Below are positions 14-49,220 of a DNA stretch of 64,000 nt, piece by piece. The notes beneath the pieces were generated by a model, which saw nothing but the letters and a program-made list of their open reading frames with translations, made no database searches and was not told the origin of the DNA. Source of the stretch: Escherichia phage vB_EcoM-ZQ1; the sequence record MW650886.1. One strand, written 5' to 3'. The position numbers were made by a program, and so were the translations under genes. Position 1 is the first letter of the stretch. Every line of letters begins with the position of its first letter.

Positions 14-1909
14 TTAATCAGAGAATACTAATCCGATTCGCTCCAGAATAAGGTAGTCAGAGGTGGTGGACGATACAACCTTTATAGCCACTGTAGTAAC
101 TAAATGTGGTGGGTTCGATAAATCTGTAAAAAACCACTCAACATCGCCGCCGCCTACTTTTGTGACAGTAGTATCATACACCCTACCAGATGCGATAGTT
201 GGGTTGAAAGTGAGGGACAGGGTGGCGCTGTTACTTGAACCGTTGTTGTCGGTGAAGGCTGCTATAATCGCCTCCAGACGTACTGGTCGCCCAAAGTTTA
301 TGGTGAATTGCTCCCCTGTCTTAATTCGGATAACTCCTGCTGGGTCATTCCATGTAGCAGTTGATGCAGGGTTTAGCCAGAACACATCCCCTGCGACAAT
401 AGGCTTTGTCTGGTATTTATAGCAGTTAGCGGGCAGGGCGTTAGCCTTTCGGAATAGTGTACGTATCAACTTACAGTCTTTTATTTTACTCTTGCGGATG
501 GCAAGACTTTGTTTCACGAGATTATATATCTGGTCATCGTTTTCCAGAAAGTGCCCATTTTTATCAGCATAGAAAGCCCACATGCCAATCTTAGAAAAGT
601 TTTTACAGATGAAGTTATTAACCGCTGTAATCTGTGCGGATTTTAAAGTTGGGGCCTCGTTCTCATACCAATACGCTGTTAGTAACGGGATGATACGTCC
701 TGCCCTCATCCCCTCCTCCTCCATAGCCGACCACATAGAGGCAGCATATCGACGGATACCAACTGCATCTATGAAATGCGCGTACTGGGATGTAAATACA
801 AAATCAATATCCATATGGAGCGGTAGAGAATCCCAGTTAACTTCTGCGTTACTAGCGGCGTACAGCGGTAGGTTACTAAGTGTTTTCACTTTAGCAATAA
901 TCTCCCCCTGGCGAGTAAGAGGGTATGTAGACAAATTCGGCTCGTCGAATAGGTATAGCCCTACTACAGCGTCATGGTCAAATAAAGAAGACAGCTTAGC
1001 GAAATCTGCATCCAGGTCAGATGAATATGCACCATTTGGCACTGCCTGAAGTATGACGTCGAAACCATACAACTCAGCTAAGTCCAGAAACGCACGGTAT
1101 GTATCAACACCTGCAGTCCAGGTGTAGAACATGAATGTCCCTATCCCTAAGTTACTGGCTTTTTCAAACAGAGTAGGGTCCAAGTCCAACTTAGTCCAAA
1201 CTTCTGAAAAAGCAACAATCCCATCAGAGTTTTTCTGTCGTTTAGGTTCGGAAATAGTGAATCCTTTGCCTGTAGCATCATAAAAAGTGTGTGCATTACC
1301 ACTTCCAGGAGACCCTGTGGTGCCAGTGGCACGATAACTAACCGTTCCATATTTGAACCGCAGGAGGACGCTATTTGTTTTTATCTGCGAGACTTTAGCT
1401 GTGGCAATATTTATAGCTTCGTTGACTGGTTCTCCACCCAATTTTGAACGCAAATCGGGGTCAATTTGAAGCTTCCAGTCACCATTACCCACCGGGTTAG
1501 TCTCTGACGTAATAGTTACAGGTAGAGTTCCTAAGTAGGTGTAACCTATGCCATTATGAAACAGTAACTCATTTCGAGTATTCACCACCAAACCAGTAGC
1601 AAACGAATCAGACAGGCTTACGAACTCTCTACGTGTAGCAGCCAGTTCACCCAAATCAACTGTACCTGCTGAATGTACCAGGATTGCATGTTCGTTCAGA
1701 CTTATCGCAGTCGTTCCTGAAACAATACCTGAAGGAAGAGAATAAGCCCGTTGGGTAGACTCATCATAAATTACTTTAAATCCACTGAGGTCAATACCGA
1801 CAGTGAAATAAACGACTTCGTCTTCTTTGACACCGAAATTTCGAGCGATAGATTGTTTGTTAACTTCTATGGAAGTGGAGCCGCGTGGTTGATTGAATTG
1901 AGAAATCAT
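14..1909 (-). CDS. Tailspike / tail fibre protein with C-terminal putative glycosidase (depolymerase) domain
   Basis: 631-aa ORF; N-terminal ~95 aa module (VKEDEVVYFTVGIDLSGFKVIYDESTQRAY...) is near-identical to an internal module of the adjacent 1050-aa ORF; C-terminal half has TIM-barrel glycoside-hydrolase-like motif (LYLFDEPN); late-promoter-like motif and SD upstream. Confidence 0.55.
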   Translation of the reverse strand: MISQFNQPRGSTSIEVNKQSIARNFGVKEDEVVYFTVGIDLSGFKVIYDESTQRAYSLPSGIVSGTTAISLNEHAILVHSAGTVDLGELAATRREFVSLSDSFATGLVVNTRNELLFHNGIGYTYLGTLPVTITSETNPVGNGDWKLQIDPDLRSKLGGEPVNEAINIATAKVSQIKTNSVLLRFKYGTVSYRATGTTGSPGSGNAHTFYDATGKGFTISEPKRQKNSDGIVAFSEVWTKLDLDPTLFEKASNLGIGTFMFYTWTAGVDTYRAFLDLAELYGFDVILQAVPNGAYSSDLDADFAKLSSLFDHDAVVGLYLFDEPNLSTYPLTRQGEIIAKVKTLSNLPLYAASNAEVNWDSLPLHMDIDFVFTSQYAHFIDAVGIRRYAASMWSAMEEEGMRAGRIIPLLTAYWYENEAPTLKSAQITAVNNFICKNFSKIGMWAFYADKNGHFLENDDQIYNLVKQSLAIRKSKIKDCKLIRTLFRKANALPANCYKYQTKPIVAGDVFWLNPASTATWNDPAGVIRIKTGEQFTINFGRPVRLEAIIAAFTDNNGSSNSATLSLTFNPTIASGRVYDTTVTKVGGGDVEWFFTDLSNPPHLVTTVAIKVVSSTTSDYLILERIGLVFSD

Positions 1910-1938
1910 GATAATACCCCATAAAGGATGACCAATAT

Positions 1939-1949
1939 GGGGTATTTAG
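1939..1949 (-). promoter_or_regulatory. Late-promoter-like motif CTAAATACCCC (minus strand) about 30 nt upstream of tailspike start
   Basis: Minus-strand sequence CTAAATACCCCATATTGGTCATCCTTTATGGGGTATTATCATG; resembles T4-type late promoter TATAAATA; same motif recurs upstream of other late genes. Confidence 0.4.
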
Positions 1950-1987
1950 GCTGAACTAATAAATTTATGAACAAAGGTATAACAAGA

Positions 1988-2012
1988 ACCCCGCCGAAGC
2001 GGGGGTTTTTAT
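1988..2012. terminator. GC-rich hairpin (ACCCCGC-CGAA-GCGGGGGT) with flanking T/A runs, intrinsic terminator between the two tailspike genes
   Basis: Perfect stem-loop followed by TTTTTAT on the plus strand; on the minus strand it immediately follows the stop codon of ORF 2009..5161. Confidence 0.5.
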
Positions 2013-5000
2013 AACTTACCTAGTGCGATAGCGACGTACGGCGACGTTGTATTCCCGACAACGTTATACAGCCCAATCGGCGTTCGGTCTAATGATGGTA
2101 GCCTTGCCCCTGCAACACCACCAACACAGCCCAAAGGTAATGGGGTACTAAAGTTTAAATTAAGACGCTCAAAGATGGAGAAAGCCAGCGTTGGCACTAC
2201 CGGCACCAGTTCAATTATTTGAGGTCTTGTGCTAGCCGGAATGGAAACATTGTAAAACGATGCGAATGTTGTCCCGTCAGCCCTTTTCAATAACGGAGTC
2301 ACCGTCATGCCTGACTCCACTGGACCAATCATCAGGAACAGCCTGGTGATACCTGACAATTCAGTATTAACGCTGAAATACATATTACTGCTACTGGAGG
2401 TAGAGTTCACTCCAGAGAGCGAACCGAAACACGGAGTATCTTTTATGATACTTTGCAACCAATTAGCTTTAAAATTAGTTACCCTTTGTGTTCTGTTTTC
2501 CTGGGAGATAAAGAAATTCTGCCGGTGGATGCTGGTTACAACGTTCTCACCACTTCCGGAGTCTGGGACCTCATCAAACGATATTAACTCGTACACCCCA
2601 TCGGACACTTTCTTAGCCGACGCGTAGCAGCTGAAATAATCACCTTGATACACTATCTGTGATGTACTGAATGTGCTTAGATCGTAGGTAATGGTCAAGC
2701 TTACATTGCTGCGGTACATCGGAGTCACAGGACGTGAAGTAGTACCGGTAATTACCAGTGGGTCATCGAAGTCAGTGTACGCCTCAATTCGCGGGCCAGC
2801 GTACACATAATTGCTAACCAGTATTGACCAGCCGTTCGCCCCGGTTAGGTCATTTGTTTTACAAATAGCGATACCACCTGCGGAGCTACCAGTATTTGCT
2901 CTGATTACAGCAATCATTTGCCCGCGATAGTATCCAAGACAGGTTTCATTAATCAGGCTCCGCCCTGGAAAATCACTTATCTGAAAACTTTTAGTAACTG
3001 ACCATGTAGTACTTGCATTCAGAAGTACATCTGATGAAGTTACAAGCTGAACTTCTGTACCTGTTATACTGTAACGAGAAATAATAAGTTTGCCATCCGG
3101 TGTTGTTAATACGTTACCCCACTGATAATAATCATCCGTTGTTACGATGTCAGATTTGCTTGTAAATGCACCAGAGTTATTGAGATCTACGTACCCTACA
3201 ATAGTTTTTTTATAGGTATCTGCGGCGACGTCATGCAGCGTAAAGGCGATAATTAACTGATTACCTGGGTTGCTAACCGAAATGCTTGGCTCTTTTGCCG
3301 CTATACCCGCAGGTGGCACATATTCCCATATAACAGAAGCACTCCCGTCCTTGAGAATTTCTGCGATGCAGGCACTGTGCTTACCTGTTGCCTGATCGAT
3401 GTGTGCTGGCGATCGACGGAAACATAAAAGATTACGACCATTCCAGAATACGGTGTTACCAAATCCGTCATACTGTACCGTGGTATCTGTGTCTTTTAAT
3501 GACGTGAGGGTTGAAACGGCGGTTTTTAATGATGACATTGATTCTTTGGAAGTCACATCAACTGATGAATCCAATATAGATATTTCGTTATATATTGTAT
3601 CGATATTCTCCTGCACAGTTTTCCCATTACTGGAACCTGTAATCTGGGCACCATTATCTGATAATAAATCACTTCTTAAAGAAGCATCACCAACGCTAAC
3701 CCACGCACCAAGACCAGTACCACCAGATGCTTCAGGGGTTGAGCCAGATGGGACAGTTTTTGGAAACTCCCCTTCCCAGCGGTATTTACCTGTTGTATGG
3801 GTAAGTAATTCATTTTTAACATTAAGTGTAGCACCAGAATCAAATGTCCCGGACAATGTGACGTACTCTTCACGAGATACAGCCAATTCCCCAAGATCTA
3901 CAGAACCCGCTGAATGCACCAGTATAGCGGAAGAACTAAGACTGACAGCAGTAGTACCAGGGACAATATCAGCAGGCAAGGGATAAGCCCTTTGCGTCTC
4001 CTTGTCATAAATAACTTTATACCCACTTAACGCAGCACCAACACTAAAATAAACGACCTCTGTATCTTTAACATTGGCTACACGAGCCACTTCCCGCAAA
4101 GTATAATCAATTTGATTATAGATGTTTGGTGTTCCATTGATAATTACAACAACTTCATCCTCTGGTTCCAGTTCTTGCGCCAGAGTGATTTTACTGGTTA
4201 ATGGATCGAATGTGAATCCCAGATTTTTATACTGGCGACTTCCGTTTATATCAATGGCCGGAACATCATCAACAACGACGTCCAACGTGATTTCGGTTTC
4301 ACCACCAATCGCTGAACCCCCATTATAGACCCAAGTAATCGTAGAAGAACTAGAACCACCGCCATTACCCAATTGAATAGGAGTATATTCAATCACCTGA
4401 AGTTCTGTGTTGGCTGGCAAAGAAGGACTGAAAGTGATTACATTCCCATCTAGTGAATATTTGGATTCCGCAAGACGTTTCCCATCAGCATACACGTCCA
4501 CGATTGTTGGTGGAGTATTGAGAGCGACAGAACTTGTTTCAGACGCCAAAATTTTTGTAAAGATTTCACGACTGTAGACACGACCTTGGCCAAGACCGAC
4601 GCCGGATGTGATAACCCAACCTTGTTCAGGTCCAGACCAAGTGAACGTTGCTGATACGTTATCAGTTGTTATAGCCATGTCTTCAGTGGAGCCATACAAA
4701 TTATTTCCAGAAGGAGACACGGTCAATGGGTAAGTGGCAAATTTCCCATAAGCATCACAAATAGTAACGGAATCCCCAATACGCGTAGGGGAAGGGAGAA
4801 CCACTGTAGATGCCCCTGTGGTATTATTAATGAGATAGCCTCGCCCTTCAGTGAGCGTTGCCGTAGAGGCATGCGGAAGGACTTCCCAGCGGATACCACC
4901 GCCACCCAGCGGCAACCATCCACCATTTTCATAGAAGCCCTCAAATTCGTCGGAGTCGGCATTGTAGCGAACGGAAGACGGGAGTCCTGTGCTGGCATTA

Positions 5001-5161
5001 CCCTCGGGTAAAGTCAGGACAGCATCTGGTCCATGCTCAATCGTACCCGTGTTGAGGAGACCAGCCAAAGTAGACTGCTCTTCAGCCGCCAGACCGAGAG
5101 GGAAAACAGGCTGTGTTGGTTTATTAGCCATTTCAAATACCCCTAAATGTGTTCGTTTCAT
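2009..5161 (-). CDS. Large tailspike protein (about 1040-1050 aa); start probably the second ATG at 5131
   Basis: Long ORF with Gly/Ser/Thr-rich beta-rich composition; shares the ~95-aa module with ORF 14..1909 (residues around 350); first ATG lies inside an inverted repeat and the promoter-like motif, second ATG has SD AGGGG. Confidence 0.55.
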   Translation of the reverse strand: MKRTHLGVFEMANKPTQPVFPLGLAAEEQSTLAGLLNTGTIEHGPDAVLTLPEGNASTGLPSSVRYNADSDEFEGFYENGGWLPLGGGGIRWEVLPHASTATLTEGRGYLINNTTGASTVVLPSPTRIGDSVTICDAYGKFATYPLTVSPSGNNLYGSTEDMAITTDNVSATFTWSGPEQGWVITSGVGLGQGRVYSREIFTKILASETSSVALNTPPTIVDVYADGKRLAESKYSLDGNVITFSPSLPANTELQVIEYTPIQLGNGGGSSSSTITWVYNGGSAIGGETEITLDVVVDDVPAIDINGSRQYKNLGFTFDPLTSKITLAQELEPEDEVVVIINGTPNIYNQIDYTLREVARVANVKDTEVVYFSVGAALSGYKVIYDKETQRAYPLPADIVPGTTAVSLSSSAILVHSAGSVDLGELAVSREEYVTLSGTFDSGATLNVKNELLTHTTGKYRWEGEFPKTVPSGSTPEASGGTGLGAWVSVGDASLRSDLLSDNGAQITGSSNGKTVQENIDTIYNEISILDSSVDVTSKESMSSLKTAVSTLTSLKDTDTTVQYDGFGNTVFWNGRNLLCFRRSPAHIDQATGKHSACIAEILKDGSASVIWEYVPPAGIAAKEPSISVSNPGNQLIIAFTLHDVAADTYKKTIVGYVDLNNSGAFTSKSDIVTTDDYYQWGNVLTTPDGKLIISRYSITGTEVQLVTSSDVLLNASTTWSVTKSFQISDFPGRSLINETCLGYYRGQMIAVIRANTGSSAGGIAICKTNDLTGANGWSILVSNYVYAGPRIEAYTDFDDPLVITGTTSRPVTPMYRSNVSLTITYDLSTFSTSQIVYQGDYFSCYASAKKVSDGVYELISFDEVPDSGSGENVVTSIHRQNFFISQENRTQRVTNFKANWLQSIIKDTPCFGSLSGVNSTSSSSNMYFSVNTELSGITRLFLMIGPVESGMTVTPLLKRADGTTFASFYNVSIPASTRPQIIELVPVVPTLAFSIFERLNLNFSTPLPLGCVGGVAGARLPSLDRTPIGLYNVVGNTTSPYVAIALGKL

Positions 5162-5164
5162 CTA

Positions 5165-5175
5165 GGGGTATTTAG
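5165..5175 (-). promoter_or_regulatory. Late-promoter-like motif CTAAATACCCC (minus strand) at the start of the large tailspike gene
   Basis: Minus strand reads AAATACCCCTAGATGAAACGAACACATTTAGGGGTATTTGAAATG; motif is half of an 11-bp inverted repeat. Confidence 0.4.
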
Positions 5176-5183
5176 TTTTCACT

Positions 5184-6395
5184 TTAGAAAGAAGCGACTA
5201 GATTGTAGTCAACGGAGCACGCAGTCGTCGTGTTCGCATTTGTTATCGTCAAACGAAGTTTTGAAGACACTACAGAACCCGCGAATGTCACCGTACCGGA
5301 AGTGGACTTCTGTACCAACAGCTCAGACTTGATAGTCCCGTCACGGGTGATCGTCACGCGGTACGTATCCACGACGTTGCCTGTACCCCATTGTGCACTG
5401 ATCAACACCTGGCAAAGGTTCACCAAATCGAAGTCGGGTAACGCAGAGTTCCCAGAAGCAGAGACAGTGATACCGCTTGGGTTGGTCTTCCCGATCTTCA
5501 CACGGGCAGCAATGTCGGCGTCCAGGCTTGTCATTTTGGCGTTGTAGGTCGATGTGTTGACCTTTCCAGACAACGTGGTATTGATCGTGCCGATATCACT
5601 CTGAATGCCGCTGATGGAACCGTCCAACGCCGCCATCTTCGTGTTATACGTACTGACGTTCACTTTGTTGTTCGTCAGATCCAGTATACTGGTGTCCAGG
5701 CTAGACATCTTGGAGTTGTAAGTCGACGTGTTGACCTTCGCAGCCAGAGTGGTGTTGACAGTGTTGAACTGAGACTGGATATCCAACATATCGGCATCAT
5801 AATCAACAACCTTCAGATAAGCGTTGAAACGCGTATCATTGAAGATAGAAGCCACAAACGCAGATGTGTCGTACTTGACAGTGTCGGTTCCACTCACCAG
5901 TAACATGGTAGTTGGCACACCAGTACCAGAGTAATTGGCCAGATTTGTGCCATCGAAAGTGAGTTTGTTGTAGCCGCCAGGTAACAACTCGATTTTCAGA
6001 CCAGAGTTAACCCCGGCAGTGTCTTCACTCACGCCGTGCTTGCGCAGCATAGACAGATTGACGCCATCAGTGGAATCAACTGGCTCATCTGCGATGGTAA
6101 GTTTCTTCCCCGTAGGGATACTGACACCAGCATTGGCTCGGATTTCTGCGGCAAAAGTCTTCCGCCCGTTGATAGTTTGTTCACCACCGTCGGTACGGAT
6201 CACTTTGTTTTCCAGTGTGTCGTAGATATTATCCACAGAACGCTTCAGCTCATACGTCAAATGAGCTGAAGGAGGAAACAACGAATCATCAACAGCGAAA
6301 TCGTTGACAACATCAGTCTTGCTTATTTTATCGTCAACAGAAGAAAGGATTGCATCAATCTGCTGACCTGTGTATCGACTCAGAAAATCGGCCAT
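5184..6395 (-). CDS. Tail fibre protein with internal sequence repeats
   Basis: 403-aa ORF; repeated units VNTSTYNSKM / VNVSTYNTKM / VNTSTYNAKM typical of fibre shafts; strong SD AAGGAG upstream; located between baseplate-like and tailspike genes. Confidence 0.5.
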   Translation of the reverse strand: MADFLSRYTGQQIDAILSSVDDKISKTDVVNDFAVDDSLFPPSAHLTYELKRSVDNIYDTLENKVIRTDGGEQTINGRKTFAAEIRANAGVSIPTGKKLTIADEPVDSTDGVNLSMLRKHGVSEDTAGVNSGLKIELLPGGYNKLTFDGTNLANYSGTGVPTTMLLVSGTDTVKYDTSAFVASIFNDTRFNAYLKVVDYDADMLDIQSQFNTVNTTLAAKVNTSTYNSKMSSLDTSILDLTNNKVNVSTYNTKMAALDGSISGIQSDIGTINTTLSGKVNTSTYNAKMTSLDADIAARVKIGKTNPSGITVSASGNSALPDFDLVNLCQVLISAQWGTGNVVDTYRVTITRDGTIKSELLVQKSTSGTVTFAGSVVSSKLRLTITNANTTTACSVDYNLVASF

Positions 6396-9054: not shown

Positions 9055-9061
9055 TATTTAG
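9055..9061 (-). promoter_or_regulatory. Late-promoter-like CTAAATA motif upstream of baseplate gene
   Basis: Minus strand reads GGCTAAATATCTTCAACACC about 40 nt upstream of ATG 9014. Confidence 0.35.
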
Positions 9062-9368
9062 CCAACGGGAATCAAAACGCTCGCGCGCGTTTAATTTATT
9101 CGAATATAACTCGCGAGGGGGCTGACGCCCTCGCTCGTAACACCGCCCTGTGCGGGCAGCACCATTCCACAGCCATGGAGGCTGCTTCTCGTTGTTCGTT
9201 GACACTCACAACTCGAAGGGCACTGCGTTAGGATACAGTTTCTTGATGTTGTAGAAAAGTAGTTTTTACCTATTAATAAACCGAACTCCTATTTTGTTGG
9301 TCTTTAATTCAATAACACTTGCACGAATATAATAGCCCGGACAATCAACCGTTATCAAGGAACCTCTC

Positions 9369-14662: not shown

Positions 14663-14768
14663 CCCTCCTGAATACCCCATACAATCCGTGTGGGGTATCT
14701 ATGAAAACCTTCCTCCAATATTTCCGGAGAGTCGTCCTGTACAAACCAGACCTCGCCAAGCGGGAAGC

Positions 14769-14779
14769 CTAAATACCCC
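14769..14779 (+). promoter_or_regulatory. Late-promoter-like motif CTAAATACCCC upstream of ORF 14809
   Basis: GCCTAAATACCCCCATATGG about 30 nt upstream of SD GAGGAA and ATG 14809. Confidence 0.4.
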
Positions 14780-18619: not shown

Positions 18620-19802
18620 TAAGTTAGCAGCATAGGGGCTTTGGTTGGCGACAACCATCGAATAACTCTCTTAATTGCTGGGAAGTCTCTTTAGAGATAA
18701 TCAGCAGCCAAGGTCGGCCACGAAGACCTAAATACTCTGTAACCACGGTGAAGGAGTAAGGTCATGAAGGAAATCAAGAGTCTGTTCTATCGAAATGATT
18801 TGGTAATTGAAGAATCTAAGATAGAAGAATATTTGAAGTTCTGTAAGGAACACAGTTATGATGGTGATGGATACAGTGAACGCCATCATGTACTGCCTCA
18901 GGCACATTATCCTGAGTTCTCTAAAGAAGAATGGAACATCGTAAACCTGTTGTACAAAGATCATGTGGAGGCTCATCGCCTATTGCATGAAGCATTACCA
19001 GAAGATAAATCAGCGTTCTTCGCCTACTTCATGATGAAATCCCATAACGGGGAACTAAGTGAGGAATTGAGAAGAAAGAATGTTGAAATGTTGACGGGAG
19101 AAGGGAATCCTTCGAAGAGGGAAGATGTCAGAAGAAAGATATCCAAATCTAAGAAGGGTGTTAAAAGGGCAGATATGAAGGGTAAGGCTTATTTCGGCGC
19201 TGATAAAGAAACAGCTGAAAGAATTAAAGCCAATTCCAGTCTTGTTCACAAAGGCACTGTCCCCGTAAGACTCCTGGATGGTAGTGTTATCAAAGTTTCA
19301 ACGCAAGACCCGAGATATTTGAGTGGTGAGTTGAAATGTATAATAGGTGCAAAGAAAGGTCAGGTGGGACCAAACACCGACCCAAAAGCGAAGAAGAAAT
19401 TTAAAGATTCTTTAGAGAAAAGGAAGGAAATGTTTGCCAGAATGAGTGGGGAAGAAATAACCACTCATTGCTTGACACAACAGGATTTAGGTAAGAAGAC
19501 TGTAGAGTGGGGCAAGTTGGCAAGAAACTTCAAACGACTCTTTGGTTACGCTGGGTTAAACCCAGATGATTTCCTTGAAGTAGTGGGCGACAAGGTTCAA
19601 CGACTATCGAAAGCAAGACCGACGACTAAGCGTCTGATCTGAAGCGAGTAGAGTAGGGGCAAGCGCCTCGAAATGGAGAGAATCTCTAGACAGTTCTGGA
19701 GATTGTGATATAGTCTGGCCTGTATGGTGACATACAGCAGTGTTCGGTAAACTGAATGACGAACACGGGGGATGAAATAGCGAGCATCCCTGAACACAAG
19801 CG
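18620..19802 (+). mobile_element. Putative group I intron carrying an HNH homing endonuclease, inserted in the DNA polymerase gene
   Basis: Splicing 18619 to 19803 restores the frame and yields DLNSLYPHII (motif A); exon 1 ends in U, intervening sequence ends in G; internal ORF has an HNH motif. Confidence 0.6.
18764..19642 (+). CDS. HNH homing endonuclease (intron-encoded)
   Basis: HNH motif ERHHVLPQAHYPEF...NIVNLLYKDHVEAH; NUMOD-like repeats GEGNPSKREDVRRKISKSKKG; SD AAGGAG. Confidence 0.7.
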   Translation: MKEIKSLFYRNDLVIEESKIEEYLKFCKEHSYDGDGYSERHHVLPQAHYPEFSKEEWNIVNLLYKDHVEAHRLLHEALPEDKSAFFAYFMMKSHNGELSEELRRKNVEMLTGEGNPSKREDVRRKISKSKKGVKRADMKGKAYFGADKETAERIKANSSLVHKGTVPVRLLDGSVIKVSTQDPRYLSGELKCIIGAKKGQVGPNTDPKAKKKFKDSLEKRKEMFARMSGEEITTHCLTQQDLGKKTVEWGKLARNFKRLFGYAGLNPDDFLEVVGDKVQRLSKARPTTKRLI

Positions 19803-26267: not shown

Positions 26268-26301
26268 TATAAATATCCTCGCCTATAAAGCGAGGATATT
26301 A

Positions 26302-26472
26302 TCATGTTACAAGATCTGTTGGTTTATGCGCTTCCTGGCGCGGTTGTCGGCTTCATCGCTGGTGCTCTGGTCTTCCGTAAACACGCGCAAGATGGTGAAG
26401 TGATTGTTCAGAAGGGTAAGGACATCCTGGAACAAATCGAAGCCAAGCTGGAAGAGCTGAAGAAAAAGTAAT
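26302..26472 (+). CDS. Small single-TM protein (56 aa)
   Basis: MLQDLLVYALPGAVVGFIAGALVFRK... followed by a charged tail; preceded by a hairpin containing TATAAATA. Confidence 0.35.
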
Positions 26473-49170: not shown

Positions 49171-49179
49171 AATCTAGTC

Positions 49180-49186
49180 CTAAATA
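49180..49186 (+). promoter_or_regulatory. Late-promoter-like CTAAATA motif upstream of structural gene 49221
   Basis: TCCTAAATAGCTATAAC about 35 nt upstream of the ATG. Confidence 0.35.
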
Positions 49187-49220
49187 GCTATAACACTCTA
49201 TCTATTTAAGGGCTGAGACC

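Follow-up and report, generated by a model that had tools for sequence, protein, structure and literature searches.

In a 64,000-nt stretch of the genome of Escherichia phage vB_EcoM-ZQ1 (record MW650886.1; hereafter, the window), the gene of the tailspike TSP4, read from the minus strand, is preceded by an inverted repeat. With a probability of roughly 60%, this repeat is an RNA hairpin tying a late promoter to the translation-initiation region of TSP4, in the layout of the T4 genes e, soc, 49, and I-TevI. The Shine–Dalgarno (SD) sequence and/or AUG of these T4 genes is sequestered on longer transcripts, the 5' strand of the hairpin being encoded by the late promoter itself; the late transcripts lack this strand and are well translated (PMC3014915). 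Further hairpins of this kind are those of I-TevII, I-TevIII, segB, and Aeh1 mobE (PMC2988022). The elements of the TSP4 site are the following:

5169..5175, minus strand: CTAAATA, a T4-type late-promoter -10-like element, taken as positions -12..-6
5163, minus strand: predicted late transcription start +1 (+/-2 nt), placed by the CTAAATA = -12..-6 geometry
5159..5174, minus strand: 5' hairpin arm UAAAUACCCCUAGAUG, overlapping the promoter and holding the first ATG (repeat search and folding)
5159..5161, minus strand: upstream in-frame ATG, a probable by-product of the stem, not conserved as a start
5150..5158, minus strand: 9-nt loop AAACGAACA, the sole part of the hairpin varying freely among genera
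5134..5149, minus strand: 3' hairpin arm CAUUUAGGGGUAUUUG (repeat search and folding)
5140..5144, minus strand: SD sequence AGGGG within the 3' arm, 8 nt ahead of the ATG at 5131
5129..5131, minus strand: true TSP4 start codon, MANKPTQPVF..., according to GenBank starts, homology, and residue 1 of PDB structures
2009..5131, minus strand: TSP4 tailspike gene, 1040 aa, starting at the second ATG
2009..5161, minus strand: the long open reading frame (ORF) of the ORF list, including the first ATG

Read on the minus strand from the stop codon of the preceding gene, the junction is TAA agtgaaaa CTAAATACCCCTAGATG aaacgaaca CATTTAGGGGTATTT gaa ATG GCT AAT AAA. An earlier, sequence-only reading of the window had noticed the repeat and placed its right arm, TAGGGGTATTT, correctly at 5163..5173, as well as CTAAATA at 5175..5169 and the two in-frame ATG codons at 5161..5159 and 5131..5129. 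Its left arm, AAATACCCCTA, lies at 5135..5145 rather than at 5138..5148, and the loop of the perfect 11-bp core spans 17 nt, not 18. The first ATG, assigned by that reading to the loop, belongs to the stem, where it pairs with CAU at 5149..5147. In the repeat search, the arms lengthen to 15 nt with a 9-nt gap and a single mismatch, which in the minus-sense RNA is a G.U pair. The helix grows inward from the core by G.U, A-U, U-A, and G-C, and outward by a U.G contributing pair 16, so 5174..5159 pairs with 5134..5149 around a 9-nt loop (5158..5150).

The stability of this helix depends on where the RNA begins. The sense RNA reading through the junction (5186..5126) has a minimum free energy (MFE) of -21.5 kcal/mol vs. 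-6.5 +/- 2.3 kcal/mol for its shuffles (z = -6.45; 0 of 200 as stable), whereas the sense RNA from the predicted +1 (5163..5100) reaches -7.2 kcal/mol (z = +0.70), i.e., its structure is not significant. By calculation, opening the stretch of 21 nt between the beginning of the SD sequence and the end of the AUG costs the long RNA 13.6 kcal/mol more than the short one; the same difference amounts to 0.4–3.4 kcal/mol in five late genes of the related phage LIMEstone1 lacking such a hairpin. Both AGGGG and the upstream AUG are contained in the 16-bp helix, in the manner of the T4-type hairpins sequestering the SD sequence. As the sequence-only reading had it, the repeat arm supplies the second ATG with an SD sequence (AGGGG, 8-nt spacer), which can make five pairs, one of them G.U, with the anti-SD 3'-UCCUC-5' of 16S rRNA.

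The proposed mechanism can be outlined as follows. The 5' arm (5174..5159) would comprise the CTAAATA late promoter and the bases just beyond it, and the 3' arm (5149..5134) would carry the SD sequence AGGGG serving the start at 5131. A read-through RNA arriving from the baseplate genes, likely from the promoter at 9060, would possess both arms, fold, and bury the SD sequence together with the upstream AUG; hence, TSP4 would be poorly translated from it. An RNA begun near 5163 would keep at most 5 nt of the 16-nt arm, its SD sequence would be free, and translation would start at 5131. The surroundings on which this scheme relies are:

5184..6395, minus strand: upstream structural gene (PHROG 3838); its LIMEstone1 ortholog, ORF161, is a confirmed structural protein
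9055..9060, minus strand: TAAATA, predicted late promoter of the gp6-like/baseplate-wedge operon (annotated late promoter in the LIMEstone1 ortholog; Pfam matches to gp6-like and baseplate wedge proteins)
1989..2004, minus strand: intrinsic terminator closing the TSP4 transcription unit, CCCCGCttcgGCGGGG followed by a T-run (terminator scan)

According to Pfam and PHROG, the three same-strand genes upstream of TSP4 encode a gp6-like baseplate protein, a baseplate wedge subunit, and a conserved structural protein. The terminator scan called the elements at 9134..9113 and 2004..1989 and none from the predicted promoter at 9060 down to the TSP4 hairpin, the interval between the gene 5184..6395 and the hairpin included. 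Around this promoter, a ~300-nt non-coding divergent region (9066-9368) separates the gp6-like operon (minus strand) from a plus-strand gene; it harbors G+C-rich stem-loops at 9134..9113, 9170..9184, and 9075..9092, all upstream of the late promoter at 9060.

The promoter half of the scheme is consistent with several lines of evidence. The interpretation of CTAAATA as a promoter element, put forward in the sequence-only reading, is borne out by its identity with the late-promoter consensus of the T4-like phage Aeh1, situated at -12..-6 (PMC1524935), and by the GenBank record of LIMEstone1, where the identical hexamer of the TSP4 site is labelled a putative late promoter. In T4, the late-promoter box TATAAATA precedes the start by about one helical turn (PMC2988020). 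The box stands 38 nt upstream of the TSP4 start, i.e., near a late gene, as gp55-dependent promoters do. The motif CTAAATACCCC, with at most one mismatch, occurs four times in the window vs. 0.58 expected (0 of 100 shuffles reach four), and each of the four matches is closely followed by a start codon on its own strand. Homologs of gp55, gp33, and gp45 are known from the relative Ag3 (PMC3121705) and are annotated in LIMEstone1 as ORF091, ORF053, and ORF120, respectively; judging by LIMEstone1 synteny, the gp55 region should be outside the 64-kb window. With the transcription start predicted near 5163, ~2 nt before the first ATG, a transcript starting here would indeed leave that ATG almost no leader, as had been anticipated.

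Conservation of the hairpin was followed in 24 TSP4 upstream regions representing seven distinct sequences from Agtrevirus, Limestonevirus, Kuttervirus, Taipeivirus, Miltonvirus, and unclassified contigs, the pairs being counted by register, since MAFFT had misaligned the 3' arms of Taipeivirus and Serratia phage 2050H1. The hairpin was found in all 24 regions at -17 to -21 kcal/mol. The window and the Kuttervirus type differ by substitutions in the loop and the SD–AUG spacer only. In Taipeivirus, a G.U pair is replaced by G-C, and in Serratia phage 2050H1 the same pair is deleted from both arms.

The main rival explanation, which we regard as unlikely, takes the repeat for an intrinsic terminator or a 3'-end stabilizer of the baseplate-gene transcript, merely overlapped by the late promoter and lengthened in its stem by the flanking A-rich TAAATA and U-rich UAUUU. 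It is backed by a public annotation: the Taipeivirus version of the hairpin, in KWBSE43-6 (MK373783.1, 95476-95504; L144 364-392), was called by ARNOLD (-12.52) and recorded as a 'putative transcriptional terminator'. In addition, UAUUUUC(UU) follows the Taipeivirus, LIMEstone1 endolysin, and ORF129 versions, and some environmental look-alikes finish in a long T-run. Nevertheless, the terminator scan misses the TSP4 hairpin while calling 2004..1989 and 9134..9113. The U-tract varies (UAUUUGAA in the window; UAUUACAA and UAUCAAAA in other genera), whereas the helix and the SD sequence are conserved, and five of the seven LIMEstone1 hairpins described below have no U-rich tail. A terminator would also be redundant at 1948, where a sibling hairpin directly follows a canonical one. 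The KWBSE43-6 label is possibly wrong and might be carried over into further records; with at least one public record naming the orthologous hairpin a terminator, this is an annotation concern.

The arrangement is not limited to TSP4, and comparable promoter/SD hairpins were found in the window at five further sites:

1907-1949, minus strand: sibling hairpin at 1948, of the next tailspike-cluster gene (14..1909), TAAATACCCCATA..TATGGGGTATTatcATG
9060, minus strand: weaker promoter/SD hairpin of the gp6-like gene, TAAATATCTTCA..TGGAGATtatcATG
14667-14779, plus strand: promoter/SD hairpin at 14669, TGAATACCCCATAC..GTGTGGGGTATctATG
18726-18766, plus strand: promoter/SD hairpin at 18729, TAAATACTCT..AGGAGTA..ATG
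26268-26306, plus strand: promoter/SD hairpin at 26270, TATAAATATCCTCGC..GCGAGGATATTatcATG, before a 55-aa membrane protein

The sibling at 1948 (CTAAATACCCCATA..TATGGGGTATTatcATG) has its arms at 1946..1936 and 1923..1913 and folds at -19.6 kcal/mol. These siblings bear on translational coupling as another rival, according to which ribosomes that finish the upstream gene would unwind the 5' arm at its stop codon and so uncover the SD sequence, TSP4 synthesis from polycistronic RNA thus requiring translation of the baseplate protein. The stop is close to the base of the stem (TAA of the gene 5184..6395, at 5186..5184, is 8 nt ahead of CTAAATA, and the distance is 2 nt in Kuttervirus), and no terminator separates the two. 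Still, siblings do without a near stop: at 1948, it is ~60 nt off and beyond a terminator, and the 9060 site has no upstream gene at all. Coupling would, moreover, leave the embedded promoter unexplained, which makes it an improbable account of the repeat.

Independent evidence for the recurrence comes from LIMEstone1, whose late promoters were curated by its authors (PMC3296691). The 29 of them located at most 70 nt from a gene were compared with shuffled sequences: a promoter-to-SD helix is present in 6 of 29 at p <= 0.01 (~0.3 expected) and in 7 of 29 at p <= 0.05; judged by MFE, nine are significant. The seven genes are those of the endolysin, the intron ORF I-LimII, the small membrane protein ORF191, two tailspike proteins, and two structural proteins. 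At the site orthologous to that of TSP4, the helix length was matched by 0 of 1000 shuffles. A hairpin as a universal trait of late promoters was considered and ruled out, ~22 of the 29 showing no significant helix. CCCC, too, accompanies only ~6 of the 29 promoters, and in four of these six it pairs with a downstream GGGGTAT.

A comparison of 27 distinct CCCC...GGGGTAT elements from Ackermannviridae sequences shows that, directly inward of the core, the first three positions form pairs in 26/27, 26/26, and 21/22 elements, with three to four pair types each; the mean inner helix is 3.7 pairs for matched arms vs. 1.4 for cross-paired arms. The inner pairs are therefore maintained with varying pair types, and more so in matched than in cross-paired arms, so the complementarity itself is conserved. 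The clearest two-sided covariation among these hairpins is found in the leaders of a PHROG 289/2114 gene (MNAQIYD...), where the stem CCCCCA..TGGGGG of L045 (3843-3872) is opposed to CCCCTGA..TCAGGGG of L038, L039, and L047.

The two strands also differ. At the TSP4 hairpin, the opposite strand of the 5186..5126 region has an MFE of -16.5 kcal/mol (z = -4.39; 200 shuffles), and the sense strand is 4.5–5 kcal/mol steadier because of its G.U pairs. Among 14 such hairpins (~8 independent gene families), the sense strand is the steadier one in 12, with 12 G.U pairs vs. 4 in the antisense. This asymmetry favors an RNA structure on the coding strand. It likewise weighs on the view of the repeat as a DNA-level palindrome, i.e., an operator of a dimeric regulator or a pair of opposed late promoters, for which a precedent exists in the window: TAAATAG...CTATTTA at 49181/49208 truly represents two divergent late promoters. 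The mismatches of the hairpins are G.U on the sense strand and A.C on the other; the spacing of the arms ranges from 4 to 17 nt among the elements, ill-suited to a fixed dimeric site; and the opposite-strand copy reads CAAATA or GATAATA, not TAAATA, and would fire antisense into the upstream gene. A DNA-level role is accordingly very improbable. As for opposed promoters in particular, they were ruled out at the TSP4 site, where the opposite strand has no TAAATA, and accepted for 49181/49208; the divergent promoters there (49178-49211, both strands) serve genes on opposite strands and match the gp48/F-LimII pair annotated in LIMEstone1.

Several of the plus-strand sites deserve a description of their own. 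At 14667-14779, the box is degenerate (CTGAATA for CTAAATA) and is followed by just a 23-codon ORF ending at the next CTAAATACCCC, while the LIMEstone1 counterpart consists of two tandem full-length structural genes, ORF173 and ORF174; the element looks like a decayed paralog with its leader retained. The site at 26268-26306 combines a perfect T4 box, TATAAATA, with an 11-bp hairpin, AATATCCTCGC/GCGAGGATATT, and an SD sequence GAGGA in the 3' arm. The gene after it (26304..26471) encodes a 55-aa membrane/coiled-coil protein of PHROG 3879 (no function listed), which could be lysis-related; the hairpin of its LIMEstone1 ortholog, ORF191, is similar, with one G-C changed to G.U. At 18726-18766, TAAATACTCTgtaaccacggtgaAGGAGTAaggtcATG stands ahead of a 292-aa ORF with no Pfam match; this leader is near-identical to that of LIMEstone1 I-LimII, an intron ORF within the DNA polymerase gene, which parallels I-TevI of T4. 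The TAAATACCCC...GGGGTAT...ATG pattern is also encountered in environmental contigs outside Ackermannviridae: in the IMG/VR contigs L060-L063, L105, and L118, several of them metagenomic, it takes the form TATAAATACCCCTAGGACA(C/T)ACTAGGGGTATTTTTTATG, e.g., at 8435-8463 of L060. The L060 element is preceded by a full TATAAATA box and precedes a homolog of the head-tail adaptor Ad2 (PHROG 211, L060 only). The look-alikes in these contigs have a long T-run and could also terminate transcription.

As to the codon from which TSP4 is translated, the sequence-only reading had taken the annotated start to be the first ATG, inside the repeat, and had proposed 5131 as the real one. The public annotation differs from the former: all seven related GenBank records compared (AV101, Ag3, LIMEstone1, CBA120, KWBSE43-6, pSal-SNUABM-02, and Serratia 2050H1) start at the equivalent of 5131. 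In tblastn, all relatives become similar from the M of MANKPTQ onward, and residue 1 of PDB 7REJ, 7RFO, and 7RFV aligns with the start at 5131. The fate of the upstream ATG differs among the lineages:

Window, AV101, Ag3, and L015: in frame, with an open 10-codon extension
Kuttervirus, Limestonevirus, pSal-SNUABM-02, and P46FS4: ATG ACA/AAA TGA, with an in-frame stop at codon 3
Taipeivirus: absent (GAC at the site), with a loop ATG instead, followed by an in-frame TAG
Serratia phage 2050H1 (Miltonvirus): out of frame

The extension is open in only one of the seven distinct sequence types, and the upstream ATG is not conserved as a start. Annotation, homology, and the non-conserved extension agree in that, on these comparisons, the TSP4 start is 5131, as the sequence-only reading had proposed and as public records already embody. 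The first ATG would be present only since ATG/CAT makes the three inner pairs of the stem. A real long ORF, with TSP4 translated from 5161 (MKRTHLGVFE-MANK...) by near-leaderless initiation on the late transcript, could draw on an ATG that is in frame and followed by an open extension in the four sequences of the first line, ~2 nt from the predicted 5' end of the transcript. This ATG has no SD sequence, the extension is stopped, absent, or out of frame in every other lineage, and the seven related records as well as the PDB constructs have MANKPTQ or an equivalent as their N-terminus, so initiation at 5161 is hardly credible. A gene call by the longest ORF would put 10 non-conserved residues onto TSP4. 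The TSP4 ortholog is structural, orf00213 being a virion protein with 42.6% coverage in the Ag3 virion proteome; the first tryptic peptide of TSP4 is probably very large because K4 precedes P.

The assignment of the gene follows from its relatives. A 1.1-kb query around the hairpin shares 98.7% identity with Escherichia phage AV101 and ~95% with Shigella phage Ag3 (in both cases Ackermannviridae, Aglimvirinae), and also matches ~200 more phage records, chiefly of Salmonella, Escherichia, Dickeya, and Shigella phages. The ortholog of ORF 2009..5161 is WJJ54146.1 of AV101, given as TSP4 in the family review, where the TSP4 N-terminus is described as an anchor domain thought to fix the branched tailspike complex onto the baseplate (PMC11721090). 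The first 338 residues from MANKPTQ align to the N-terminal constructs of CBA120 TSP4, 7REJ (E = 4.5e-199) and 7RFO (E = 3.1e-198); beyond the conserved N-terminus, the sole Pfam match is Tail_spike_N at residues 417-482. A megablast search with the receptor-binding part (~2009-3900, minus strand) gave no match in a collection of 50,697 phage records, and the best records of this collection span just ~51–52% of the region 1800-5300. This part is, judging from the search, probably a tailspike specificity new to that collection.

Certain observations weigh against a T4-like hairpin at the TSP4 site. The sole predicted or annotated same-strand promoter upstream (9060, gp6) is itself late, not early or middle; therefore, the hairpin cannot separate early from late expression here and would at most uncouple TSP4 output from the baseplate operon or serve an extra role. 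The sibling at 1948 is found ~40 nt past the canonical terminator 2004..1989, a strong one, so little read-through is expected there. The stems are near-invariant in the TSP4 orthologs, where little covariation can be counted (a single replacement of G.U by G-C and a single deletion affecting both arms), and the terminator label of the orthologous hairpin in the KWBSE43-6 record counts in the same direction. The searchable literature contains no transcription-start, read-through, or translation data for any Ackermannviridae phage.

In a tentative variant, the hairpin of Ackermannviridae is no temporal switch and operates as an insulator between late genes: each tailspike gene and a few other late genes would possess their own late promoter fused to an anti-SD arm, and their output would follow that promoter alone, not read-through. 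We consider this variant doubtful. If it is true, the near-invariant junction of promoter, hairpin, and N-terminus could be a portable boundary for swaps of tailspike cassettes, and the conserved 'cCcc' of the family late motif would be an anti-SD element, not a promoter determinant. Reportedly, this motif was given as 'CTAAATAcCcc' by Adriaenssens et al. in the Viunalikevirus genus proposal of 2012. Its 'cCcc' part may reflect the hairpin rather than promoter recognition.

The T4-like reading of the TSP4 hairpin widens the reach of the T4 device to tailspike, endolysin, and intron-ORF genes of Ackermannviridae. It also has a practical side: since expression may depend on the junction, exchange of tsp genes between these phages should retain or rebuild both of its arms. 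None of the words promoter, transcription, and hairpin occurs in the family review (PMC11721090), and the searchable literature makes no mention of a promoter/SD hairpin in Ackermannviridae. The proposed mechanism is that of the known T4 device; as far as the searchable literature shows, Ackermannviridae are a new setting for it, with tailspike genes and about a fifth of the late promoters carrying such a hairpin.

Compared with known systems, the TSP4 element shares with a Rho-independent terminator the G+C core stem placed between A-rich and U-rich tracts, and differs from it in the 9-nt loop, the poor and non-conserved U-tract, the 3' arm doubling as the SD sequence, and the absence of a call in the scan. 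With Aeh1, it shares the identical CTAAATA heptamer immediately upstream of late structural genes. As in T4 e, soc, 49, and I-TevI, a TATAAATA-class promoter encodes the 5' strand and the SD sequence is in the 3' strand, so that an RNA initiated at the promoter, with its predicted start, would be free of the inhibitory arm. The LIMEstone1 layout even extends to an endolysin gene and an intron ORF, i.e., the gene classes of e and I-TevI, in which the device was first described. Unlike in T4, the gene in question encodes a tailspike, the contrast is between read-through from an operon and the gene's own promoter, not between early and late transcripts, and CCCC follows the -10 box, where T4 is AT-rich (PMC2988020).

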